Shown here: piece after piece, positions 115 through 40,761 of the stretch
Layout: each line of letters begins with the position of its first letter
How positions within the stretch are numbered: position 1 is the stretch's first letter
Origin: Candidatus Hadarchaeota archaeon
GTDB taxonomy: Archaea; Hadarchaeota; Hadarchaeia; Hadarchaeales; Hadarchaeaceae
Length of the DNA: 64,000 nt
Direction of reading: 5' to 3'
NCBI GenBank assembly: GCA_964514965.1
Contig: CAZETV010000002.1
Coordinates: forward strand, 37,547-101,546
Translations under genes and position numbers: made by a program
The notes under the pieces: model-generated
The model's database searches: none
What the model saw: the letters and a program-made list of their open reading frames with translations, nothing else
What the model was told of the DNA's origin: nothing

Positions 115-399
115 TTACTCCTGCTTTCTTGTGTCACCAATCCTCAACGAGGTATAGAAACCGTGCTCCCTCGAGACGCCGAAGTTCACCCACAGGCTTC
201 GTGTTTCGTCGATAGGCACTCGAATCGAGTCTGGGTATGGTTTGCCTTTTGGCCAGTTGATGTACCCGTTGGGGAGGACAAGCGAAACAGTGCCCCCCTT
301 CACAGGGATGTTGGCTGTGTACGGTTCCTTGCCTTCCCGCTTCGCAACGATTCTCAAGGTCGAAATCGTTCGAGTTTCATCTCGGATTTCCTCCATCAT
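115..399 (-). CDS. hypothetical small protein (94 aa)
   Basis: Intact ORF in a compositionally coding-like region. I recognise no motif in it. Confidence 0.3.
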   Translation of the reverse strand: MMEEIRDETRTISTLRIVAKREGKEPYTANIPVKGGTVSLVLPNGYINWPKGKPYPDSIRVPIDETRSLWVNFGVSREHGFYTSLRIGDTRKQE

Positions 400-611
400 C
401 TTCTCACCTCCAGCTCTTGATTGGTGAGGAAACGTGCATACACCTCGTTTTTGCGTGAACCGTTTCCCGCCAAAGCTTTGGATGGGAGTTCTTTATAAAT
501 GGGAAAACATAATTTCGGGAGTAAGAAGTGTTAGATATATTTTAGAATCAATTGGCTGTTTTTCCGTGTCTACTACATGAGCCCAAATCTAAAAAACGAG
601 CTGGGGGGTTC

Positions 612-12289: not shown

Positions 12290-12535
12290 CTATTTGGGGC
12301 ACAGCAAAAGATGTCTAACCTCCCCCGATGTCAGGAGAATCCGATCCGACTCGATGAACGCCAGTACCTTGCCCTTAGCCGCAAGCACGCACTCTGCCGC
12401 CGCTAGCAGTGCGGCCAAATCTTGAAATCTCCACACCGAATGCTGCACCAACTGCGCGTTACACTTCAAATAGTGATTCATCTTTCGCCTTGCGTCGCTT
12501 CGACCATCTAGGTCGTAAACAAGCAGATACGCCAT
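12290..12535 (-). CDS. Cas2-like small nuclease-fold protein (orphan)
   Basis: From Met-28 of the called ORF, MAYLLVYDLDGRSDARRKMNHYLKCNAQLVQHSVWRF matches the Cas2 pattern (M..LV.YD., RR.K, G.RVQNSVFEC). There is no cas1 and no array nearby. Confidence 0.45.
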   Translation of the reverse strand: MAYLLVYDLDGRSDARRKMNHYLKCNAQLVQHSVWRFQDLAALLAAAECVLAAKGKVLAFIESDRILLTSGEVRHLLLCPK

Positions 12536-12560: not shown

Positions 12561-12884
12561 CTACGCCACGGGTTTGCCACCTTTGAGCATAACTTCCCTT
12601 CCGTCGTCGCCCTCATCGTAGAGCACCCAAGTAAGCCTAGGTGTCGCTGCAGACATGCGTCTCACCGTTAGAACAATCCGTAGTCTTTCCTCGCGGCTGC
12701 GAACTTGGGTGAATCCCCATCGAGCGTCGCGCGGCTCCATTCCTTCGAGGATATCTGATTTCCGCCACAGCTTTATGCGTTCGTTAAAACTGCGTTGCAT
12801 GTTGAACTCCTCCTTAAGAGCCCGAAGCGCTTGGAGTTCACCGGGGCAAACGGCTTCGAGGGTCTGATAATGAATCAGTTCCAT
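12561..12884 (-). CDS. small protein of uncharacterised paralogous family (paralog A)
   Basis: Starts MELIHYQTLEAV. It shares IKLWR..WGFT.V...R.R..V......TPRLTW...DEG with ORF 30977-31288 and carries the same conserved promoter/5' module. Confidence 0.5.
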   Translation of the reverse strand: MELIHYQTLEAVCPGELQALRALKEEFNMQRSFNERIKLWRKSDILEGMEPRDARWGFTQVRSREERLRIVLTVRRMSAATPRLTWVLYDEGDDGREVMLKGGKPVA

Positions 12885-12935
12885 TTCTCCCGCCGAGGAG
12901 TTGGGTGGGGGTTGTTTATAAAGATGCAAATTTTA
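12850..12935 (-). repeat. copy 1 of conserved promoter + 5'-coding module (TTTATAAACAACCCCCACCCAA..CTCGGCGGGAgAAATGG...)
   Basis: The reverse complement aligns with 30226-30320 and 30935-31030: TATA box, about 22-nt leader, then the first roughly 13 codons. Confidence 0.7.
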
Positions 12936-12992: not shown

Positions 12993-13256
12993 ATGCCAGA
13001 AATTTACTATGTTTACCTTCTGATGAGCCTGAAGGACGAGAAGTTTTACACGGGGCAGACCACCAACCTCAAAAATCGTCTCGCACAGCACAATCGAGGC
13101 AGGGTGCGTTCGACCAAGGCAAGAAGACCGTTCAAACTCGTCTATTGGGAATCTCTCGAAACGCGCAGCGCCGCAATGAAACGTGAGCGCAAGTTGAAAT
13201 CACTCAAACACGCTTATAAACTGAAGTTGGTCAAAGTGTTCAACGAGGTAAAATAG
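12993..13256 (+). CDS. GIY-YIG domain nuclease-family protein (stand-alone URI domain)
   Basis: EIYYVYLL...YTGQTTNLKNRLAQHN..G, followed by a conserved Arg, Glu and RERKLK. Internal Met at 12993 is the likely start. Confidence 0.7.
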   Translation: MPEIYYVYLLMSLKDEKFYTGQTTNLKNRLAQHNRGRVRSTKARRPFKLVYWESLETRSAAMKRERKLKSLKHAYKLKLVKVFNEVK

Positions 13257-14594: not shown

Positions 14595-14671
14595 TGGTGC
14601 GGCCGGCGGGATTCGAACCCGCGCTACAGGCTTGGAGGGCCTGAGTCCTAGCCAGGCTGGACCACGACCGC
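14595..14671 (-). tRNA. tRNA, probably Gly (anticodon UCC), CCA encoded
   Basis: The reverse complement folds as a cloverleaf: acceptor GCGGUCG/CGGCCGC, D-arm GUCC/GGAC, anticodon stem CAGGC/GCCUG with loop CCUCCAA, T-arm GCGGG-UUCGAAU-CCCGC, and a 3' CCA. Position 33 is C, which is atypical. Confidence 0.7.
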
Positions 14672-29277: not shown

Positions 29278-29463
29278 TTAACGCCGAAAAAGCTTCAGCT
29301 CCCCCACGGAGGTTTCGAAAGTCCCGCATTTCTGGCATTGCAGCTCAGCCCGTCCCCCCTCTATTCCTACGGTATGCGCAGGCTTACCACAGTAGGGGCA
29401 ACGCACGGGCCCGTGAAGCAGTTTTGAAATTCTCATTGCAACCCGGACAGACTTAGAACTCAT
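29278..29463 (-). CDS. zinc-ribbon protein (CPYCG...CQKCG)
   Basis: 61 aa with two CxxC pairs. Confidence 0.4.
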   Translation of the reverse strand: MSSKSVRVAMRISKLLHGPVRCPYCGKPAHTVGIEGGRAELQCQKCGTFETSVGELKLFRR

Positions 29464-29656: not shown

Positions 29657-30088
29657 TTACTTCTCCGCCTCTTCCTCAAGCGCCCCCGTATGGAGTGTTT
29701 CCCATTCTACTTTTCCTTGTTCGACCACGCGCTTGAGCTTTCGTTCGACCGGGCTCAGAGCTGCAGTTTTACCGGTCTTGACATCGAGAAATATGATTCT
29801 TCTTGGCTCCCCCTCCTTGTAGCCATCGAACACCAAATAGTCCACAGGCGAACCTATGAACCGCGCATCAGCCGGCTCGTGTTTGAACATCGGCAGCAAG
29901 GGAGCAAGTTGTTCACCAATCCTGCCTTTAAGCACCGCCCGGCTTCGCTCGAGCACCTCTCGCCTGATCCTTTCTTCGAACTCGGCTTTCCATCGTTCGA
30001 ACTGCACAGCCAGCCGCCCTCGGAGATATGTGTAGGCTAAAAAGATGCCGATCAAAAGTCCGATGACGAAAACGACTATCTCGATCAT
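29657..30088 (-). CDS. membrane-anchored PD-(D/E)xK nuclease related to archaeal Holliday-junction resolvase (COG4741-like)
   Basis: N-terminal TM helix, then VDYLVFDG ... IIFLDVKTGK (D...D/E-x-K) and a conserved Glu. Confidence 0.5.
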   Translation of the reverse strand: MIEIVVFVIGLLIGIFLAYTYLRGRLAVQFERWKAEFEERIRREVLERSRAVLKGRIGEQLAPLLPMFKHEPADARFIGSPVDYLVFDGYKEGEPRRIIFLDVKTGKTAALSPVERKLKRVVEQGKVEWETLHTGALEEEAEK

Positions 30089-30225
30089 TTGCTCAACCCT
30101 TCCCCGCTATTGATTCACGCGGAAGTTAATAGAACCTAATGTTTAGAACTAAGACCACATGAATTATTTTACCTAACTCGGCGGCAAGCAAAACAAGTAG
30201 CAAATAAATTGATCCCACCTGCATC

Positions 30226-30320
30226 TTTTTCTCGCTTATAAACAACTCCCACGCAAAGCTTCGGCGGGATGAATGGGGCGAACGCTTTTCCATCGGACGA
30301 AAGAGGCGGTAAAAGCTGAG
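30226..30320 (+). repeat. copy 2 of conserved promoter + 5'-coding module (CTTATAAACAACTCCCACGCAAAGCTTCGGCGGGATGAATGGGGCGAACGCTT...)
   Basis: Aligns with copy 1 (reverse complement) and copy 3. The coding part is fused in frame to an unrelated RHH antitoxin ORF. Confidence 0.7.
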
Positions 30321-30398
30321 CTCACACGCTCAACACTTGCGCAGAGAGGAGACCAAAACACTTTTAATTGGTGTAAACAAAAATGTTTACGTGAAAAA

Positions 30399-30620
30399 AT
30401 GCCCCAAGTCCAGCTGAGGGTACCTGAGGGAACGCTTGAAGAACTCGATAAATGGGTAAAAGAAGGTAGATTCAAAAGCCGCAGCGGCGCGATCAAAACC
30501 ATCATTGCTTTTTACCAAGAGCGGGAACGAGCGCGCAGCTTCTACAAGATGCTAGTAGAGCGGAGCCGAGAGGCCAAGAAAAAACCAGAACTCCTCATTC
30601 CACTAGGGGAATTAGAGTGA
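30399..30620 (+). CDS. ribbon-helix-helix (CopG-like) antitoxin
   Basis: PQVQLRVPEGTLEELDKWV has the RHH beta-strand plus helices and precedes relE by 4 nt. The longer ORF from 30273 adds the repeated MGRTLFHRTKEAV N-terminal remnant. Confidence 0.6.
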   Translation: MPQVQLRVPEGTLEELDKWVKEGRFKSRSGAIKTIIAFYQERERARSFYKMLVERSREAKKKPELLIPLGELE

Positions 30621-30883
30621 GTTTTCAGGTCTTCCTGCATCCCAAGGCGGTGAACTCTCTACAAAAGTTAGACAAGCTAATCAGGGGCGAAATAAAAAAG
30701 AAGTTGAAGGAGCTGGAAAAGCAGCCCAATTCAGGCAAACGGTTGCGATATTCTAATTTTTGGGGTTTAAGGGTGGGAGACTTTAGGGTTATCTACGAAA
30801 TCGATCGTGCCGAAAAAAGAGTGATTGTATTATTCATCGGACACAGGAAAAAAGTTTACGACGATTTTTCAAGGATATTCTGA
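30617..30883 (+). CDS. relE: RelE/ParE-family toxin
   Basis: 88 aa; GDFRVIYEIDRAEKRVIVLFIGHRKKVY is the RelE fold signature. Confidence 0.75.
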   Translation: MSFQVFLHPKAVNSLQKLDKLIRGEIKKKLKELEKQPNSGKRLRYSNFWGLRVGDFRVIYEIDRAEKRVIVLFIGHRKKVYDDFSRIF

Positions 30884-30934
30884 TTGAGCTGCTGCTAGCA
30901 CCATAATCTCCGAAGGATCGCCCCCAACCAATTT

Positions 30935-31030
30935 CCCCCATATAAATAACCCCCACCCAAAGCCTCAGCGGGATGAATGGGGCGGACGCTTCATTATCGA
31001 ACGAAGGAGGCCGTAACAGTCGAGGAGTTC
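30935..31030 (+). repeat. copy 3 of conserved promoter + 5'-coding module (ATATAAATAACCCCCACCCAAAGCCTCAGCGGGATGAATGGGGCGGACGCTT...)
   Basis: Aligns with copies 1 and 2. Confidence 0.7.
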
Positions 31031-31288
31031 AAACAGATACGAGAGATCGCGAACAGGTACAACGCGGGGCACAAATGGGCATACGAAAACATCAAACTCT
31101 GGAGGGAAACGAGCGGCACGCTCTGGGGATTCACAAAAGTCAACGACAGCGCCCGGGATAGAAAATTGGTAATTCAAGCGATAAAGGAGATTTCCAAAAC
31201 GACGCCACGGCTGACCTGGCTGTTCTTCGATGAGGGCTGGCTGGGAAAAGGCGAGTGGGCAAGATTCAAAGGTGGAAAGCAGGTTTAG
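30977..31288 (+). CDS. small protein of uncharacterised paralogous family (paralog B)
   Basis: MGRTLHYRTKEAV...IKLWRETSGTLWGFTKV...TPRLTWLFFDEG, homologous to 12561-12884. Confidence 0.5.
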   Translation: MGRTLHYRTKEAVTVEEFKQIREIANRYNAGHKWAYENIKLWRETSGTLWGFTKVNDSARDRKLVIQAIKEISKTTPRLTWLFFDEGWLGKGEWARFKGGKQV

Positions 31289-31369
31289 TCCACTCAATAT
31301 CTCAATCGCTTTCCATTTGATTTATTTCTCCGCGTGCCAAAAATGAAATGCCCGTGAGTGGCGTGAGGC

Positions 31370-32143
31370 TTGGAATTGACGGTGTTGATTGGCCCCAGCT
31401 TGGAGGACGCGAAGGAACTCCTGGCAGCTGCGATAAGGGACAAGCGGCTCGCCCTGCTCGTCGGCTCCTGCGTGGTCAACTACATCGGGCGGGCCGGCTC
31501 GGTGCTCCCCGAAGGCGAGCGCGTGGTGATGCTCAAGCCGGATGGGGCCCTGCTCGTCCACCAGAAGAAGAAGCGGGAGCCCGTGAACTGGAACCCGCCC
31601 GGCTGCGAGGCGAGCGTGCGTCTAGGCGGGAAGGGCCTGCAACTCATCTCCAAGCGGAAGCGGCCAAAAGAGCAGCTGCTGGTCATCTTCAAGAGCCTAG
31701 AGCTGGCCGCGTCCTTCGAACTCGTCGATCAAGAGGAGCTTTACCTCGTGGGGTCGGAGCGGGACCTAATCACCCTTGTGTTCAACGAGCCGAGCCTGAT
31801 CGAGCCGGGCTTCAAGCCACTTGAGCGGGAGAAGCTCACGAAATACGGCATGGTTGACCTTTACGGCGTCGACCGGGATGGAAATGGTGTGGCGATAGAA
31901 TTCAAGCGTCGGCGGGCCGAACTCGCCAGCGCAAGCCAGCTCAAGCGCTACGTGGATGAGCTGAGCAAAAAACTCGGAAAGCGCGTCCGAGGCATCCTAG
32001 TGGCCCCCTCGATAACCTCGAGCGCCCTGAAGCTACTCAATGAAAATCAGCTGGAATACGTACGAATCAGGAAGCCACCCACCTACACCTTTGAACGGGT
32101 TGTGACCCGGGAGCGGGGGCAGAAGGGAATAAGTGAGTTTTGA
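31370..32143 (+). CDS. nucS: endonuclease NucS/EndoMS (RecB-like, mismatch-specific)
   Basis: 257 aa. The C-terminal GMVDLYGVDRDGNGVAIEFKRRRAE (D...D...E-x-K) and overall length match NucS/DUF91. It is markedly GC-richer than its flanks. Confidence 0.7.
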   Translation: MELTVLIGPSLEDAKELLAAAIRDKRLALLVGSCVVNYIGRAGSVLPEGERVVMLKPDGALLVHQKKKREPVNWNPPGCEASVRLGGKGLQLISKRKRPKEQLLVIFKSLELAASFELVDQEELYLVGSERDLITLVFNEPSLIEPGFKPLEREKLTKYGMVDLYGVDRDGNGVAIEFKRRRAELASASQLKRYVDELSKKLGKRVRGILVAPSITSSALKLLNENQLEYVRIRKPPTYTFERVVTRERGQKGISEF

Positions 32144-32252
32144 GCTTAATGGGCTAAAGTCCGTGATTCAATCCAAGATTGGGCGGCATGTAATTTACAA
32201 ATGTCAATAAGCTAATTAACAAAAAAATGTCAGATTATTCATTGTAGTCAAT

Positions 32253-33302
32253 ATGAAAAGATCATCAAAAAAAGGTCTTCCGCCAGGATCTCTCGTTCAT
32301 GTAGGGGAGAAAAAGGAAGAAAAAGTAAGAATTACAATCATCGACTATGACAAAGCGCAATTTCAAGAGAAGGAAGCAGAAACTGTCGAGGAATGTTTTC
32401 CCTTTAAAGATAAACCGACCGTGACATGGATAAACGTAGATGGCATTCATGAGCCGGAGATTGTGAAAAAGCTCGGTGATTGTTTTGGAATGCATCCTCT
32501 CGTGCTCGAAGACATCCTAAACACCGATCAACGTCCAAAAATGGAGGATTATGGTAACTACATTTACATCGTTTTGAAAATGCTTTATTACGATGAGAAA
32601 AGCAACGAGATGATTACAGAGCAGGTAAGTTTAGTTCTCGGTTCGAATTTTGTCATCTCTTTCCAAGAAAAAAGAGGGGATGTCTTTAACCCGATTAGAG
32701 AGCGAATCAAGAGCGATAAGGGCCGCGTAAGAAAAATGGGGGCCGATTACCTTGCTTATGCTTTGACGGATGCAATTGTTGATAACTATTTTACAATCTT
32801 GGAAAAAATTGGAGAAAAGGTAGAGTCCCTAGAAGAAGAGTTGGTGGCCAAACCAACACCAGAAATACTACAGGCAATCCACAATCTGAAAAGAGATCTG
32901 ATATTCTTACGAAAATCGGTCTGGCCTTTGAGGGAGGTGATTAGCGGCTTGGAAAGAGGAGAATCATCGCTGATTGATGCGTCCACCAAGCTCTACCTCA
33001 GGGATGTTTACGACCACACAATTCAGGTAATTGATACGGTGGAGACTTTGCGAGATATGGTTTCCGGGATGCTTGATATTTACCTCTCGAGCATCAGCAA
33101 TAAAATGAACGAAGTCATGAAAGTACTGACGATTATTGCCACGATATTTATTCCTTTGACTTTCATCGCGGGCATTTATGGAATGAATTTTGCCTTCATG
33201 CCGGAACTTGGGTTACCTTGGGCTTATCCTCTAATTTTGCTCGTGATGGTTGGTGTAGGTATATTAATGTTGATTTATTTTAGGAGAAAAAGGTGGATAT
33301 GA
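32253..33302 (+). CDS. corA: magnesium transporter CorA
   Basis: C-terminal two-TM region with the YGMNF (GMN) motif. Confidence 0.85.
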   Translation: MKRSSKKGLPPGSLVHVGEKKEEKVRITIIDYDKAQFQEKEAETVEECFPFKDKPTVTWINVDGIHEPEIVKKLGDCFGMHPLVLEDILNTDQRPKMEDYGNYIYIVLKMLYYDEKSNEMITEQVSLVLGSNFVISFQEKRGDVFNPIRERIKSDKGRVRKMGADYLAYALTDAIVDNYFTILEKIGEKVESLEEELVAKPTPEILQAIHNLKRDLIFLRKSVWPLREVISGLERGESSLIDASTKLYLRDVYDHTIQVIDTVETLRDMVSGMLDIYLSSISNKMNEVMKVLTIIATIFIPLTFIAGIYGMNFAFMPELGLPWAYPLILLVMVGVGILMLIYFRRKRWI

Positions 33303-34719: not shown

Positions 34720-36108
34720 TTGCCCGATTATAAAGAACCTCCGCGCAACGGCTTGACGGGAAAGATGGAGAAGAGACCGATACAGACAAATTTAGACGAT
34801 TTTTCTGAAGTTTATAAAGTTTATAAATTACTTTCACCGACTTCTCCCTCCCCTAAAATCGCATTTATTAATGATCGTAGAGAATGCAAAATGGGGGTGA
34901 CAGTGCAGCAGGGCATACTGTTAGTGCAACCAGAGTTCCCGATCGCTGGTAAGAGCAGGTGGCATAAATCTTTCCTGCCAATCGGGCTCCTAAAGCTCGC
35001 TTCATACTACCGGAAAAAAGGGCACAATGTGAAGTTGGTCTGTGGTAAAAAGAACCTAAAATTTCGACCTGATAAAGTCATGATAAGCTCGCTATTCACG
35101 TATTGGTCCAAATACGTCTGGGATTGCGTTAAACACTACAAACAGCTCTACCCAAATGCCAAGGTTGTGGTCGGTGGGATTTACGCCTCTCTAATGCCAG
35201 AACACTGCAAAAAGTCAGGGTGCGATGAAGTATTCGTTGGGGTGCACAAAAAAGCAGAGAAATGTGAACCTGCATACGATCTTCTTAAAAATAACTCTCA
35301 CCCCATAGACTATCAAATAATTCACACTTCTCGAGGCTGCGTCAGAAAGTGCAAGTTCTGTGGCGTATGGAAGATTGAGCCCGATTTTGAATACAAAAAA
35401 AGCATAAAAGATGAAATTCGAAGCAACCAACTGGTATTTTACGATAACAACCTTTTGGCAAACCCTTACATCGAGAACATTTTGGAGGAGATAGCACATA
35501 CCAAAGTTAACGGCAGGGTCGTGATCTGCGAGAGCCAATGTGGTTTCGATGGACGAATGCTAACCCCTAAGCTCGCAAGGCTAATCAAGGGGGCACATTT
35601 TCAATATCCCAAAATTGCGTGGGACGGGTCTTATTCAGAGCACAAAAACATCAAAAAACAGCTAGACATGCTTATAGATGCTGGCTATAGCCACAAAGAC
35701 GTTTTCGTGTTCATGATATACAACTGGGACCACGATTTCCGCGAGATGCAGAAAAAAAGATTGAAATGCTGGGGGTGGAAGGTGCAGATTTCTGATTGTC
35801 GATACAGACCATTGGAACAGACTTATGATAATTATGATCCGAGGAGAGTACAGACGAACGATGATTATTTTATACATCCAAAATGGACTGATTCTGAGGT
35901 TAAACAGTTTAGAAAAAACGTGCGTAGGCAAAATATTTGTGTTAGGCTGGGATTTTCATTTCATAGCAAAATCTTAGAGCAGAAAAAGCTCGGCAAAAAC
36001 ACGATAAAAAAATTACGAGACATGACACCAACTAAAGCTAAAAAAATGTTGCCAGATGTTTGGAACCCTGGTGAGATTACATTCCCTAAAATGGACTTAT
36101 GTACGTAG
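34720..36108 (+). CDS. B12-binding-domain radical SAM protein
   Basis: N-terminal Rossmann-like B12-binding region plus TSRGCVRKCKFCGV (Cx3Cx2C). AT-rich codon usage. The true start may be Met-58 (34891). Confidence 0.7.
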   Translation: MPDYKEPPRNGLTGKMEKRPIQTNLDDFSEVYKVYKLLSPTSPSPKIAFINDRRECKMGVTVQQGILLVQPEFPIAGKSRWHKSFLPIGLLKLASYYRKKGHNVKLVCGKKNLKFRPDKVMISSLFTYWSKYVWDCVKHYKQLYPNAKVVVGGIYASLMPEHCKKSGCDEVFVGVHKKAEKCEPAYDLLKNNSHPIDYQIIHTSRGCVRKCKFCGVWKIEPDFEYKKSIKDEIRSNQLVFYDNNLLANPYIENILEEIAHTKVNGRVVICESQCGFDGRMLTPKLARLIKGAHFQYPKIAWDGSYSEHKNIKKQLDMLIDAGYSHKDVFVFMIYNWDHDFREMQKKRLKCWGWKVQISDCRYRPLEQTYDNYDPRRVQTNDDYFIHPKWTDSEVKQFRKNVRRQNICVRLGFSFHSKILEQKKLGKNTIKKLRDMTPTKAKKMLPDVWNPGEITFPKMDLCT

Positions 36109-36109
36109 A

Positions 36110-36574
36110 TCATTTTTTCTTTACTTTCTTTGCTATCCCAATTAATTCCGTCTCTAATCTTTTACTAAAGCTACCTTTCCCACTAAAAACCTGATCTTTT
36201 AGAATTTTTATTCCGCCTGCAGCATATTCCTCGACTATTGAATACACTCTTTTTTTATCCAATAGCACTTCTAAATTACCTGCATCTTTTACAGCTACAG
36301 CGTTAATCAAAGCTTTTTCTGTATCGCTAAGGTATTCTGTCCTGATATATCCCGAGGGGTCCTTGTCTGTTATTTTGTGCTTTATTCCATTTTTGAATCC
36401 AACTACCATCGCTGCCAAAAATAAATGTTTTTTATTCTTGTTTCCAAATGGGCTATCTTTTTCTTCCAGCCTTGAAAAATGTTCTTTATCACTTTTTCTA
36501 ATGTAAATTATTGCTGGATCTTTACTTACCATATTTTCCCACCTGCGCTTTTGAGCCTGTTTTAAGTTCTTCAA
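36110..36574 (-). CDS. hypothetical protein, last gene of the candidate defence operon
   Basis: 154 aa, Lys-rich, no recognisable motif. Overlaps the upstream ATPase fragment by 53 nt. Confidence 0.35.
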   Translation of the reverse strand: MKNLKQAQKRRWENMVSKDPAIIYIRKSDKEHFSRLEEKDSPFGNKNKKHLFLAAMVVGFKNGIKHKITDKDPSGYIRTEYLSDTEKALINAVAVKDAGNLEVLLDKKRVYSIVEEYAAGGIKILKDQVFSGKGSFSKRLETELIGIAKKVKKK

Positions 36575-37121
36575 ATATTATTTTGTATTCTCCAATCAAA
36601 TTATCTGATAACTTTTTTCTGACGAATGGTGTATACTCGGTATCAGTCATTAACAGAATAACTTGCTTGTTTTTTAGATATTTGGGTAAATTTTTGCAAA
36701 TGTTTTCCCTTATTTCTCCAGAGATTCTACCCAGCGGGGTATCCATAACTATTGGGAAATCGAAACCAGAATATGCGCTCAAAGCATTTATGAATGATAA
36801 TGCCAACGCTTCCATTTCACCTCTGCTTAAGCTTCCTAATCCTTCGTGGTCTGATCTATGCGTGACGGAAATTTCATAATCATCGTTTATTTTTACATTT
36901 TTCCATTCATCTTTCTTCCAAATTAAATTGAAAAACGATTCTTTTGTGATTTGGTTAATTTTTTCTCTAGTGTCTTTCATAATGTTTTTTTTCACCTTAG
37001 TAGCCAATTCAACGGCTTCATCACAAAATGACACCACTTTGTTTAGCTCATCAAATTCTTTAGATCTTTCTAGTTCTTTATCCCGTTCTCTTCTGTAGGT
37101 CTCGAACTGACTTTCGGCCAT
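36522..37121 (-). CDS. DndD/SMC-like ABC ATPase, C-terminal half (signature + Walker B)
   Basis: LSRGEMEALALSF signature, FPIVMDTPLGRIS Walker B / D-loop as in DndD-type ATPases, and QVILLMTDTEY. Confidence 0.55.
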   Translation of the reverse strand: MAESQFETYRRERDKELERSKEFDELNKVVSFCDEAVELATKVKKNIMKDTREKINQITKESFFNLIWKKDEWKNVKINDDYEISVTHRSDHEGLGSLSRGEMEALALSFINALSAYSGFDFPIVMDTPLGRISGEIRENICKNLPKYLKNKQVILLMTDTEYTPFVRKKLSDNLIGEYKIIFEELKTGSKAQVGKYGK

Positions 37122-37156
37122 TTTAACTCGTGCCTCACGTTCACCGATATCTTCAC

Positions 37157-38482
37157 TTAATTTCGTGATTTCTGTATCAAGGTTTCCGTATCGTTTCTCC
37201 AGTATTTTAAATTTTTCTTCAATTTTTGAATCGACTTGTTCTTTAATTTTTTGCTTTTATTTTCATAGCCAGTTTCTAGTTTTTTGATTTCTCTTTCAAG
37301 TTTGATCATGCTTGTGTCAAAATTTTTAAGGTTATCGATGGATCGGGCTAAATCGGTTTTTAATTTAATCAAATCCGAACTAATGGCGGATATATCGCTT
37401 ATTTTTTTAAGAAGACTCTCAACTTTTTTTCTACAACTGATATTCTTTTTAGTTATGTCCGTCCCACAGATACAATTACCATCTTTAAGTAATTTTTCTA
37501 AATATTTTGGGTCTATATTTGGCGGTACATTTTCTTGGTCTTGTTCTCGAGTAATCTCTTTAATTGTGGATTCTATAGCAGGATAAGTTAGTAAATGCAG
37601 GGAAGAATCTACAAGAAAATCCGTCAATTCATCTCTCTTATCTTTTATTGTTTTTTCAAGATCTTTCAAATCACGTTCAAGTTCTTCCCTGGTTTCCTGT
37701 AAGTTCCTTATATTTGGCATTGACTTTAATTCTTCGGCTATTTCGTTTTTATCCTTAACTTTCCCATCTTTTATTTTACGGAATTTTTCCAAGTCGGCTT
37801 TATAGTTGTTTAAGGATTTCTCCCAAGTATCAATTTTCTCTTGAGCATCTGCAAGAGCGGGAGTTAACTTTTTTGATTTTCTTACAAATTCGTTTTGTAT
37901 TGCTCCCAAGTGCGATATCGCTTTTTCCAACACTTCCAATTGAGAAAGTTTAAAAATCTCCTTTTTTATCTCCTCACCAGATTTTTCTCTAAAATAACTT
38001 TCTAGCTTTTCACCATCAAAAAGAAAATAGTCTACAATACTCCCTGGTATCAACTGATTAGCAACATAAGTCGGATCAGAAACAAATTTCATGTCGTCTC
38101 CGATTTCTCGTAAAAGTTCAAATTTTTGTTTGTTGGGAATTTCTTTTACTTCGCCATTTTCTTCACAATATTTTGTGCTTCTCACAAAAATCGCTTTATT
38201 TCCTTCATTGTCTGTCATTACAATTTCCACTTTTACTTCACATGCTGATGGACTCTCCTTTAAAGAAATAGTATTGACCGTGGGCAAAGCTAAACTTTTT
38301 TTATTTAGGTGTAACTCCCTGCCATATAAGCACCAAGTAATAGCGTTCATTATGTTTGTTTTCCCTGCCCCGTTTCTACCTTCTAAGACGACTATGTTTT
38401 TTTTGCCGAATGGTGCAGGGAACTCTATTATTTCATTTGCATATTGCCTATAATTAATTAATTTAATTTTTTTAATTAACAT
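37157..38482 (-). CDS. DndD/SMC-like ABC ATPase, N-terminal half (Walker A + coiled coil)
   Basis: IKKIKLINYRQY...VLEGRNGAGKTNIMNAITWCLYG, then a long Lys/Glu-rich coiled coil. It is separated from the C-terminal half by 35 nt and a frame change. Confidence 0.6.
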   Translation of the reverse strand: MLIKKIKLINYRQYANEIIEFPAPFGKKNIVVLEGRNGAGKTNIMNAITWCLYGRELHLNKKSLALPTVNTISLKESPSACEVKVEIVMTDNEGNKAIFVRSTKYCEENGEVKEIPNKQKFELLREIGDDMKFVSDPTYVANQLIPGSIVDYFLFDGEKLESYFREKSGEEIKKEIFKLSQLEVLEKAISHLGAIQNEFVRKSKKLTPALADAQEKIDTWEKSLNNYKADLEKFRKIKDGKVKDKNEIAEELKSMPNIRNLQETREELERDLKDLEKTIKDKRDELTDFLVDSSLHLLTYPAIESTIKEITREQDQENVPPNIDPKYLEKLLKDGNCICGTDITKKNISCRKKVESLLKKISDISAISSDLIKLKTDLARSIDNLKNFDTSMIKLEREIKKLETGYENKSKKLKNKSIQKLKKNLKYWRNDTETLIQKSRN

Positions 38483-38485
38483 GAA

Positions 38486-38656
38486 TTATTTCACCGCCTT
38501 TTTTACAAGATTTTCGTACGTTTCACTATACCACCAACGATCTTCCTCGGAGTGGTCTGTTTCTAACATCAATATTTCTTTCAGAAATTTTTTGGTTTTT
38601 TCACTATAATTGCTTTTTTCAATTTCTTTGATGATTCTTTCGTTTAATATAGCCAT
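38486..38656 (-). CDS. small ORF (56 aa) between helicase and ATPase genes
   Basis: MAILNERIIKEIEKSNYSEKTKKFLKEILMLETDHSEEDRWWYSETYENLVKKAVK. Its stop abuts the ATPase ATG. Not in the ORF track (<60 aa). Confidence 0.3.
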   Translation of the reverse strand: MAILNERIIKEIEKSNYSEKTKKFLKEILMLETDHSEEDRWWYSETYENLVKKAVK

Positions 38657-38664
38657 GTGAACCA

Positions 38665-40761
38665 CTATAGGTTAAATTCTTTCCTTATTTTTTTAACTTT
38701 TTCAAGACACTTCGGGGTGTTGTTAGCATCATATGCGAACTCTTCGTATCTCTTTAGCTCTTTTATCAGTATCTTCCTTTCCAATTCAAAAAAATCTGGT
38801 TCGAAAGAACGTTGCGAAGAGGGCAAAACAATAATGTCGTAGAGTGTGGCCTTGTCCTTTCCCGGAAAACGTCTTAAAAGCCTCCCTCTTCTTTGAATGA
38901 ATTCTCTGGGATTACCCGAGCTCGAGAGCAATATGCCTGTTCTGGCGGGTGGAACATCCACTCCTTCGTCTAAACATTTCATTGCAACTAAAATCTGATA
39001 ATCGCCATCGGCAAATTTTCGGAGCAAAATTTCTCGTTGGGCAACGTTTTCGACCGCTGTAAACTTGTGTTGTAAAATATCTCTGTCGTTTAAAATTCTT
39101 TGAACTCTCTTTATCTGTTTTGGCGAACAATAAACAAAGCAATGTCTGGCACCGCCACCGATCTTGTCTAATATTTTTTCAAAAACAACGTATTTGTTTT
39201 GAGCGTTTTTTACGGTCTCTTGACGTTTTATACATAACAAATTAAAAAGTTCCTTTCTCTCCTGGTTAGACTTGCATGCGTAATATTGTCGAGCAATTTT
39301 CTTAGTTTCAGATTGATAGAGGTAAAACTCTTCGTCAGTCATCTCGACGAAATAGGGTTCATATTCGTATGGTGTGAGATAAGTTTCTCCGGTTTTTGGA
39401 TTTACAGTTGTGATGGCATCTTTTATAGAGAAAACTGATACTATATCTCCGAAATACTCAAAAAGTTTTTTGCTTCCAGGTTCATCAAAATATCTTTTAG
39501 GTGTTGCACTTAACCCCAACCTGAATTCATATCGGTCTAACAAACCTTTTTGTCTCTCTGGTGCCCCGAGGGTATGAACTTCGTCGCCAATTAAAAATAC
39601 TTTTGCGCTAGTTTCATTTATTATTTCAGTAAAATCATTACTAGAAATGGTATTTGGGGTAGTTAAAATTATTATTTTTTCACTAATGTCATTTTCTATG
39701 TCCCGCAAGTAGTCAACCAGTTTATTTTTCCAACCTGGATTGCTACTATCAGCGATTACGATAAGCCAATGAATGTCAAATTTTATTATTTCATTTTCCC
39801 ATTGTTTCAGCAAATGTTTGGTGGGTGAAGTAATGACAATGACAAGCTTTTTTTCTGATTCAGACATTTTCTTCAAACATCCCAACGCAGCAAACGTTTT
39901 CCCAGAACCTGTAGCCATTTCAAAAATCCCTTTCTTACCGTTTTCTAACCAATTAGCGATAGCACTCTCTTGATGAGTCCATAACTTGATTGCTTTTTTT
40001 CTTATCCATTCTTTCTTTATCAACCATTTGTCCAGATTCAAAACTTCAACATTGTCTGGAGCTATTTTAATAAGCTTTTCTTTTACGCCGGTGGGGACAT
40101 CGATAACTTTTGTTCTTCTTGCCTGTCCATTCCAGAATTTTTCAAATTTTTTGATATCTGTATCAAGATATTCTTTTTCAGTTTCTTTCCAACTACAAAA
40201 TACTTTAAACTCTTCTATATGCCTCGTCCATCCATAAGCGCTTTCGTTATCAGAACCGCTAAACGATATTCGGTTCCCTTCTACATCTTCTAATATACCG
40301 ACCTTCTGATGAAACAATCCTTCTTTTTCGATAGATTCTTCATCAAGAGGTAGCCCGTCCTCATCATAAACGATTGCTATTTTAATTTCTAGTTTCTTTT
40401 TGGCAATCATCCACCCCAGTGCGCACACATGGTCTTCCACGAATTTATCTTCTAAATTTTCCAATTCTTCAAGCATCATTTTTTCTATCACTTTCTCAGG
40501 AGTTTCATGAGCTTCTCTAATAACTTCAACATCGGATTTTCGTAGTTTGGCGCTTGTAACTAAATACATGAATCCACCATTGGAAATCAATTTAGAAATT
40601 CCTCTCGCGGCAACAGCAAGAGCGCTTGAAGAGAAAAATCCAGCTAACCTTTTATAAGTTACTGATTGGGATAATGCAAGTATGTAAAAGTCATTTAGAA
40701 TATCGTCAATGTCGGAGTCGTAAGCTTTTTTTAGCTTTATACCCTTCAAGGTCATGTTCAC
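38665..40761 (-). CDS. PLD-family (HKD-like) nuclease domain fused to SF2 ResIII/DEAH-type helicase
   Basis: N-terminus has FHQKVGILED...SFSGSDNES (HxK...GSxN). Then ATGSGKTFAA (motif I), LIGDEVH (motif II) and QRRGRLLRR (motif VI). GGAGG SD lies 8 nt upstream of the ATG. Confidence 0.7.
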   Translation of the reverse strand: MNMTLKGIKLKKAYDSDIDDILNDFYILALSQSVTYKRLAGFFSSSALAVAARGISKLISNGGFMYLVTSAKLRKSDVEVIREAHETPEKVIEKMMLEELENLEDKFVEDHVCALGWMIAKKKLEIKIAIVYDEDGLPLDEESIEKEGLFHQKVGILEDVEGNRISFSGSDNESAYGWTRHIEEFKVFCSWKETEKEYLDTDIKKFEKFWNGQARRTKVIDVPTGVKEKLIKIAPDNVEVLNLDKWLIKKEWIRKKAIKLWTHQESAIANWLENGKKGIFEMATGSGKTFAALGCLKKMSESEKKLVIVITSPTKHLLKQWENEIIKFDIHWLIVIADSSNPGWKNKLVDYLRDIENDISEKIIILTTPNTISSNDFTEIINETSAKVFLIGDEVHTLGAPERQKGLLDRYEFRLGLSATPKRYFDEPGSKKLFEYFGDIVSVFSIKDAITTVNPKTGETYLTPYEYEPYFVEMTDEEFYLYQSETKKIARQYYACKSNQERKELFNLLCIKRQETVKNAQNKYVVFEKILDKIGGGARHCFVYCSPKQIKRVQRILNDRDILQHKFTAVENVAQREILLRKFADGDYQILVAMKCLDEGVDVPPARTGILLSSSGNPREFIQRRGRLLRRFPGKDKATLYDIIVLPSSQRSFEPDFFELERKILIKELKRYEEFAYDANNTPKCLEKVKKIRKEFNL

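Follow-up and report, generated by a model that had tools for sequence, protein, structure and literature searches.

A 42-bp element that includes a TATA box heads a wide range of genes in Hadarchaeota and, judged from its sequence and position, is best read as an extended core promoter that would give rise to near-leaderless transcripts. It was identified in the window, i.e. the whole 64,000-nt stretch of Candidatus Hadarchaeota DNA analysed here, which holds five copies, among them those in front of two genes for small paralogous proteins, paraA and paraB. An initial annotation of this DNA had described three of the copies, together with the first codons behind them, as a ~90-nt promoter and N-terminal module that is shuffled by recombination and heads three cassettes, each ending in a nuclease-type gene. 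Our analysis suggests that this stretch is probably a composite, in which the promoter element, the conserved N-terminus of the paralogs and the remnant left by a toxin-antitoxin insertion have come to lie together.

A 42-bp element in front of unrelated genes

The degenerate 40-nt pattern TATAAAYAACYCCCACSCAANNCYTCRGCGGGAKRAATGG, derived from the description in the initial annotation, matches exactly three sites in the window, at 12881-12920 on the minus strand (copy 1) and at 30237-30276 and 30941-30980 on the plus strand (copies 2 and 3), where none is expected (100 shuffles). A repeat finder places copies 2 and 3 within a 93-nt direct repeat of 80% identity (30228-30320 versus 30932-31024), and copy 1 is 83-85% identical to either of them over 40-41 nt. 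In a three-way alignment, the likeness begins a few bases 5' of TATAAA, is most pronounced as far as the start codon, and tails off some 13-16 codons into the open reading frames (ORFs). The 40 nt preceding the start codons of paraA and paraB are 85% identical, whereas the encoded proteins are only 36% identical (E = 6e-20); this would not be expected from duplication alone, and argues for constraint on the non-coding DNA.

The element itself reads TTTYCCCYT-TATAAA-N-AACCTCCACCCAAAGCCTCGGCGGGA and has a nearly invariant spacer of 27 bp. A position weight matrix (PWM) built from the upstream regions of the paraA/paraB family retrieved five sites in the window at 42-49 bits and none between 10 and 42 bits, with a maximum of 16 bits in shuffled sequence. 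The three stretches first described are real, but two more copies of the non-coding part, at 34729-34761 on the plus strand and 465-497 on the minus strand, had been overlooked. Copy 1 (12888-12929, minus strand) heads paraA, the ATG of which lies 3 nt beyond the GGCGGGA that ends the spacer. Copy 2 (30228-30269, plus strand) adjoins an Hjc-like gene and lies upstream of a toxin-antitoxin pair, and represents the ancestral paraB promoter. Copy 3 (30932-30973, plus strand) heads the intact paraB gene and has the same upstream flank in locus L110; like copy 1, it is matched by both the pattern and the PWM. Copy 4 (34720-34761, plus strand; 42.9 bits) heads a gene for a B12-binding radical-SAM protein (34765-36108; Pfam PF02310 and PF04055). 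Copy 5 (465-506, minus strand; 42.2 bits) heads a 94-aa ORF (115-399, minus strand), from which it is separated by a leader of about 65 nt that holds a GGAGGTGA Shine-Dalgarno sequence; orthologs were found in L042, L063 and L095. The L numbers designate loci fetched for comparison from genome and metagenome contigs, mostly of Hadarchaeota.

In these fetched loci the PWM also detected extra copies of the element before genes outside the paraA/paraB family. A metagenome scan with the non-coding part alone, TATAAANAACHNNCNYNCAAMNSYTYRRCGGGA, returned 93 stretches, against a roughly estimated chance expectation of ~0.1. Taken together, the window, the genome loci and the metagenome stretches contain 114 element sites, about 95 of them distinct, in Hadarchaeota contigs. 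Clustering of the first ORF behind each site gave 32 groups (a handful of which are spurious ORFs over tRNA genes), and at least 20 unrelated protein families are represented. Besides paraA/paraB, the element-headed clusters comprise pilin-like proteins with a KGQ-type signal, a membrane-anchored OB-fold protein, the radical-SAM enzyme, MazE/AbrB, RHH and HTH proteins, toxins of the DUF4258, ParE-like and PBECR3 types, an N6/N4 DNA methylase, a LAGLIDADG endonuclease, and several unannotated families. In eight loci a tRNA gene is located 73-108 nt downstream of the element on the same strand, and in L072 a near-consensus copy lies a few nt from a tRNA. A promoter specific to one cassette family, as originally envisaged, does not agree with this range of targets.

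The leaders of some of these tRNA genes show a peculiarity of their own. In L056 (1011-1224), and also in L062, L073, L111 and L096, the element and the tRNA are separated by a leader of 75-100 nt, which copies about 22 nt of the D-arm and anticodon-stem segment of the tRNA itself; in L056 both leader and tRNA read GATAAGACACCAGTCCGACGG. Between loci, the two copies change in step. The element-headed tRNAs with this leader repeat are about 90 nt long, a length that could reflect an intron or a long variable arm.

The placement of the element relative to genes is highly regular. TATAAA is on the coding strand at all sites, and the listed copies each precede an ORF start or a tRNA gene on their own strand, with one 3'-degenerate copy as the exception. 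At 78 of the 96 distinct sites (81%), the start codon (ATG, GTG or TTG) of an ORF of 40 aa or more follows 0-7 nt past the final A of the element, most often at 3 nt, which puts it about 30-37 bp from the start of the TATA box. Where the ORF is more distant, the element is followed by a GGAGGTGA Shine-Dalgarno sequence, for instance at copy 5 in the window and at the sites in L063 and L095 (GGCGGGAaaagttGGAGGTGAaaactATG), and in these three cases the Shine-Dalgarno leader starts directly after GGCGGGA. At ordinary genes of the window, the TATA region is AT-rich and the leader has a Shine-Dalgarno sequence, and the spacer motif is absent. The 5' boundary of the element is sharp: T occupies positions -8 and -7, which were not set by the search pattern, in 99% of the distinct sites, and the information content is zero beyond -9.

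The element also appears to be old. In all 21 genome loci that encode relatives of paraA and paraB, the stretch from TATA box to start codon is conserved, while the DNA further upstream cannot be aligned. Orthologous copies have private variants in common (the radical-SAM promoter in the window and L067; the promoter of the 94-aa gene in the window and L042), and the element has been retained before both paraA and paraB in spite of the divergence of the proteins and their unalignable flanks. That orthologous copies share such variants and both ancient paralogs keep the element points to long residence of its copies under purifying selection; these data indicate long-term vertical inheritance rather than recent transposition. 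In distant Hadarchaeota lineages, the same layout is found upstream of paraA/paraB with a lineage-specific sequence: a TATA box, a C-rich block, CAAA, and a G-rich block that abuts the start codon. No second copy of these lineage-specific variants was found at other genes within the 4-8 kb per locus that these divergent genomes offered.

The many near-identical copies with sharp boundaries could alternatively be seen as a small mobile or duplicative promoter-bearing repeat, resembling a miniature inverted-repeat transposable element (MITE), that is only secondarily used by genes and whose copies recombine to yield insertions and deletions. The outer ends of the element do form a weak inverted repeat (TTTYCCC...GGGARAA), and two insertion/deletion polymorphisms are bordered by its copies, namely that of the toxin-antitoxin pair at paraB and that of a ~1.1-kb segment at paraA (L018, L034 and L057). 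Many of the genes headed by the element also belong to the accessory or selfish kind, e.g. those for toxin-antitoxin pairs, the methylase and the LAGLIDADG endonuclease. We nevertheless consider a MITE-like origin improbable. Target-site duplications were not seen on inspection of the flanks, and convincing terminal inverted repeats are lacking. The copies keep a constant orientation and distance to start codons and occur at tRNA genes and other conserved genes as well, and the shared variants and ancient paralogs described above point to residence in place. The two element-flanked polymorphisms are only suggestive of dispersed copies acting as recombination substrates.

The element as a proposed extended core promoter

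In archaea, the centre of the TATA box typically lies some 26 bp before the transcription start site (TSS); canonical archaeal promoters have it about 24-27 bp before the TSS, and leaderless mRNAs start at or near the start codon. Given this usual distance, transcription from the element would begin within GGCGGGA. The Shine-Dalgarno sequences downstream of the element likewise imply that its 3' end lies at or before the TSS. With the start codon usually 2-5 nt beyond the element, leaders of about 7 nt, and hence near-leaderless mRNAs, would be produced. We propose that the element is an extended core promoter common across Hadarchaeota, in which TTTYCCCYT would take the position of the TFB recognition element (BRE). 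This block is highly conserved and pyrimidine-rich, and thus differs from a purine-rich BRE.

In canonical archaeal promoters, such as those of Haloferax, Sulfolobus and Pyrobaculum, the stretch between TATA box and TSS is little conserved, apart from a weak A/T-rich proximal element. The invariant spacer of the element covers the region to be melted at initiation, and its TSS-proximal part, GCCTCGGCGGG, is G+C-rich. Most likely, this spacer would be recognised by a trans-acting factor dedicated to it, which might be a global regulator or a specialised initiation factor, and the element-headed genes and tRNA genes would then form one co-controlled expression class. The occurrence of one class of sites upstream of several unrelated genes (five in the window), together with its conservation in orthologous promoters, is what would be expected of the operators of a regulon. 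Alternatively, the spacer might reflect a requirement of open-complex formation, which could lead to a joint response of these promoters to some physiological signal.

Several points weigh against this reading of the element. Both the TSS and the promoter activity are deduced from position alone, and conservation that is uniform across 27 bp is unusual for a transcription-factor site. Inspection of the consensus showed, besides the weak outer inverted repeat, a GCC-NN-GGC core, but there is no clear dyad symmetry in the spacer and no candidate binding factor was found. The sample itself is skewed to near-identical copies by the strict search pattern, and its loci come from related uncultured populations, so that the sites are not phylogenetically independent. 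The targets (tRNAs, pilin-like, toxin-antitoxin, methylase and repair-associated genes) have no obvious common function.

Conservation that is this uniform might also be that of an RNA, i.e. a structure in a 5' untranslated region, a small RNA or an antisense transcript, and the CCTCC of the element resembles an anti-Shine-Dalgarno sequence with which GGGAG could pair. Such a role is very unlikely. With the TATA box inside the element and the start codon 2-5 nt after it, most of the element should stay untranscribed. The only match in the window at the Rfam gathering threshold is a tRNA (14598-14671), and single-sequence folds of the three copies are no better than those of shuffled sequences (z = -0.85, +0.98 and +0.11). 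Inspection of the variant copies, made without a formal covariation count, brought no compensatory changes to notice.

A scan of 30100-32300 for bacterial-type promoters and terminators gave counts at the level of shuffled sequence, and a literature search for Hadarchaeota promoter motifs turned up no report of such an element. The transcription signals of uncultured archaeal phyla are almost unexplored, and this discrete, near-invariant and phylum-wide element provides a directly testable handle: it would predict TSSs, define a set of co-expressed genes, and offer a strong or regulated promoter for heterologous work.

The paraA/paraB family and its neighbours

The genes paraA (12561-12884, minus strand; 107 aa) and paraB (30977-31288, plus strand; 103 aa) encode the full paralogs that the initial annotation had placed behind copies 1 and 3. 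They are ancient paralogs, and represent the A-type and B-type members of an uncharacterised ferredoxin-like family; orthologs of paraA in L010-L021 are 55-94% identical. The closest protein homologs, as well as all 21 genome loci encoding relatives, belong to metagenome-assembled genomes of Hadarchaeota or Hadesarchaea. No match to any model in Pfam, NCBIfam, PADLOC or PHROG was obtained for the family. Near-invariant features in the family alignment are the N-terminus MGRT[LIV]HY, a WGFTKV motif and a DEG motif. An exhaustive profile search yielded 110 representatives, including bacterial proteins of 200-350 residues with the domain at their N-terminus, in which no extra domain could be identified with Pfam; the N-terminus of the family is conserved in the bacterial relatives too. 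The AlphaFold2 model (pLDDT 86) has the topology beta-alpha-beta-beta-alpha-beta-beta and is ferredoxin-like, and a structure search with this model gave generic neighbours only, without a match to a curated model or solved structure. The roughly 13 codons shared by the three stretches encode the first strand of this conserved full-length domain, and not a separable module as had been supposed.

One bacterial relative, a 236-aa protein on an Edwardsbacteria contig (L120, 1529-6732), is encoded in a co-directional run with genes for ArdC, RadC, DUF87 and a beta-clamp-like protein, a neighbourhood that resembles the leading region of a conjugative element.

Downstream of paraA, with a start 25 nt past its stop codon and an AGGTGAT Shine-Dalgarno sequence, lies a gene for an 81-aa Cas2-like protein (12290-12535, minus strand). 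The same arrangement, with about 25 nt and AGGTGAT, is found in 12 loci. Reverse look-ups starting from divergent Cas2-like proteins found a 107-aa paraA directly upstream in three out of three cases, with a variant of the element in front. The two genes appear to form a tight bicistronic pair, which would be co-transcribed from the element. In other lineages, paraA is followed by Ldh_2 or TatD, without a Cas2-like gene; one further relative of the family adjoins a TatD DNase.

The assignment as Cas2-like is based on model matches, annotated homologs, the predicted fold and a conserved residue. Matches to the Cas2 models are below threshold (PF09827, 19.4 versus a cut-off of 23.8; TIGR01573, 18.2 versus 24.5) and cover residues 1-36 only. 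Some homologs bear a precomputed PF09827 assignment, and the predicted fold is the ferredoxin-like beta-alpha-beta-beta-alpha-beta fold of Cas2, with a conserved N-terminal Asp (Asp8). The gene is an orphan, as had been noted: the window contains no CRISPR-like repeat family, the neighbours of the gene are paraA and a peptidase A24 gene with no cas1 nearby, and no cas genes were present in the reverse look-up loci. Homology between the paraA/paraB family and the Cas2-like family was also considered, and rejected on an hhalign probability of 0.9%.

Two additional segments were observed around this gene pair. In L020 (4552-5073), and in this genome only, a 0.87-kb insertion encoding a membrane or secreted protein of 173 aa parts paraA from the Cas2-like gene. 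The ~1.1-kb segment in L018 (2810-3988; also in L034 and L057), which is absent from the window, carries a reverse-strand amidohydrolase-like gene and is bordered on one side by an element copy that is degenerate at its 3' end and on the other by the intact paraA promoter; the degenerate copy in L018 adjoins GIY-YIG, at the position that the paraA promoter has in the window.

The B-type gene has a different companion. Downstream of paraB lies nucS (31370-32143, plus strand), encoding a NucS/EndoMS endonuclease with both domains above cut-off (PF21003, 93 bits; PF01939, 109.5 bits); its G+C content of 58-62%, against 40-50% in the flanking genes, agrees with the GC-rich gene described before. 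Between genomes, the NucS protein retains 83-97% identity where paraB has no more than 70-92%. All B-type loci fetched, including relatives at 46-50% identity, have paraB next to nucS; most show the two genes in the same direction, and L008 and L117/L118 show them convergent. The spacer between them is strongly conserved across genomes (TTTTCCATTTGRTTTATTTCTC ... AAAAATGAARTGCCC). It comprises a T-rich, TATA-like block (31309-31331, plus strand), conserved in the window, L001, L002, L003, L005, L006, L047 and L074, and a Shine-Dalgarno-like sequence. The T-rich block may be the promoter of nucS itself, the terminator of paraB, or both, and its conservation together with the Shine-Dalgarno-like sequence implies that nucS is probably transcribed independently.

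Copy 2 differs from the other two in that only a remnant of paraB follows it. The remnant, the first 16 codons (MGRTLFHRTKEAVKAE; 30273-30320, plus strand), is in frame with an RHH gene, as had been described, giving an ORF of 115 aa (30273-30620) with the RHH match at residues 46-83. The RHH antitoxin would start at an internal Met (30399-30620, plus strand); its match to PF01402 (RHH_1) is borderline (19.2 versus a cut-off of 20.5), and it shares 72-96% identity with the RHH genes in L071, L032 and L110. With a 4-nt overlap at the RHH stop codon follows a toxin of the ParE/RelE superfamily (30617-30883, plus strand; PF05016, 52.2 bits versus a cut-off of 23). A perfect palindrome, GTAAACAAAAATGTTTAC (30372-30389), is located just upstream of the RHH start, and recurs at the corresponding position in L071 (about 717-734), an independent RHH-ParE locus; it is likely, on these grounds, to be the autoregulatory operator of the toxin-antitoxin cassette.

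Comparison of loci shows two states of this region. In the close relatives L001, L002, L033, L036 and L092, an Hjc-like gene, about 136 bp, paraB and nucS follow each other without a toxin-antitoxin pair, while in the window, L032, L037 and L110 an RHH-ParE/RelE pair is located between two element copies. Upstream of copy 2, the flank can be aligned to the DNA between the Hjc-like gene and paraB in L001, L002 and L092, and the flank of copy 3 is new. The RHH-ParE/RelE cassette would accordingly have been inserted 16 codons into paraB in the lineage of the window, leaving the old paraB promoter and 16 codons in front of the toxin-antitoxin pair, and a second promoter copy with an intact paraB downstream. 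Locus L071 has a homologous RHH-ParE pair behind an element copy, without a paraB remnant; a second element copy after this pair, as a recurrent duplication mechanism would leave, was sought there and not found. The palindrome is read in one frame by the N-terminal extension of the RHH protein of the window and in another by that of L071, and the fusion is for this reason unlikely to be a selected protein feature. The supposed third cassette is thus a by-product of a single toxin-antitoxin insertion. Upstream in the same region, a small zinc-ribbon gene is single in the window (29278-29463) and present as two tandem copies in the close relatives L001 (819-1382) and L033 (5924-6487).

These neighbourhoods bear on the cassette family proposed at the outset, in which a promoter and N-terminal module would recombine in front of varied nuclease or RNase cargo, as pairs of an antitoxin or regulator with a nuclease. 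The window copies do head Cas2-like, ParE/RelE and NucS genes, another family member precedes a TatD DNase, genes for nucleases or helicases (GIY-YIG, Hjc-like, Lhr, PDDEXK) lie divergently upstream, and the pair of paraA and the Cas2-like gene, constant in the reverse look-ups, resembles an operon of the toxin-antitoxin type. We still regard such a family as improbable. Its promoter is common to at least 20 unrelated families and to tRNAs, and its N-terminus belongs to a full-length conserved domain. Both gene pairs represent vertically inherited synteny without shuffling. The nucS gene has its own conserved upstream block and is sometimes convergent to paraB, and several lineages have Ldh_2 rather than a nuclease downstream of paraA. 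Copy 2, finally, is a remnant, with RHH extensions that cross the shared palindrome in different frames. Promoter likeness alone, as this case cautions, does not define a functional cassette family.

The links to nucleases do recur, with paraA beside the Cas2-like gene and paraB beside nucS in many other Hadarchaeota contigs. Since they recur and no known family model applies, the paralogs cannot be dismissed as a well-known housekeeping protein without such a link. As the constant neighbour of NucS and the obligatory partner of an orphan Cas2-like protein, the family suggests new accessory factors in archaeal DNA repair or nucleic-acid processing. The genes divergent from the paraA/paraB promoters repeatedly encode nucleic-acid enzymes, i.e. 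GIY-YIG, Hjc-like resolvase, Lhr helicase and PDDEXK nuclease (window 12996-13256, plus strand, and 29657-30088, minus strand; L115, 946-3867; L124, 3261-3875); this could be a coincidence or the mark of a repair neighbourhood.

A more far-reaching scenario, which we put forward as rather unlikely, is that of a second dedicated expression channel in Hadarchaeota. A specialised factor, e.g. a TFB or TBP variant or a new DNA-binding protein, would read the 42-bp element and fire near-leaderless transcripts, and would co-control tRNAs, pilin-like surface proteins, genes of toxin-antitoxin or defence type, and paraA/paraB. The element copies would double as homology patches for the capture and loss of cassettes, and paraA and paraB would be new small partners or modulators of nucleases.

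Elsewhere in the window, convergent to the element-headed radical-SAM gene, a Pbe-type defence gene set related to Dnd/phosphorothioation systems is located (36110-40761, minus strand). It comprises PbeA (38665-40761), a PbeC split over two ORFs (37157-38482 and 36522-37121), possibly by a frameshift, and a dnd_assoc_4-like gene (36110-36574).

Comparison with known systems

The closest described analogue of the element is found in archaeal viruses. In SIRV2 and others, early and anti-defence genes share regulatory sequence around the promoter core, and this conserved flanking sequence is thought to be bound by the repressor Aca8 (PMC11065993). Common to both cases is that many mostly small genes with unrelated coding sequences stand under a highly similar stretch around a near-identical BRE/TATA core. 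The Hadarchaeota element differs in being chromosomal and phylum-wide rather than confined to one virus, in reaching 27 bp past the TATA box to the presumed TSS, in having a pyrimidine-rich instead of a purine-rich block in the BRE position, and in heading tRNA genes and conserved cellular genes as well.

With canonical archaeal BRE/TATA promoters the element shares a TATA box at a fixed distance, a consistent orientation, and a start codon near the presumed 5' end of the transcript. Unlike these promoters, it is conserved at almost every position from TATA box to presumed TSS, is G+C-rich in the region that melts first, and is used by a discrete subset of genes, whereas most genes of the window have Shine-Dalgarno leaders.

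The toxin-antitoxin module itself is an ordinary type II RHH-ParE/RelE system, with a small RHH gene, a 4-nt overlap with a PF05016 toxin, and an upstream palindrome. What sets it apart is its placement within the 5' end of paraB, the duplication of the host promoter and the in-frame extension of the antitoxin ORF.

The Cas2-like protein corresponds to stand-alone Cas2/VapD-like proteins in its small size, beta-alpha-beta-beta-alpha-beta fold and N-terminal YDxD-type strand with a nearly invariant Asp8; in the reverse look-ups, it always has paraA upstream, a partner that is not described for Cas2 or VapD. In Thermococcales, nucS forms an operon with radA. The Hadarchaeota nucS resembles known NucS/EndoMS neighbourhoods in that a conserved mismatch endonuclease is located among repair genes, with Hjc-like and Lhr genes nearby, but its constant neighbour here is paraB, in either orientation.

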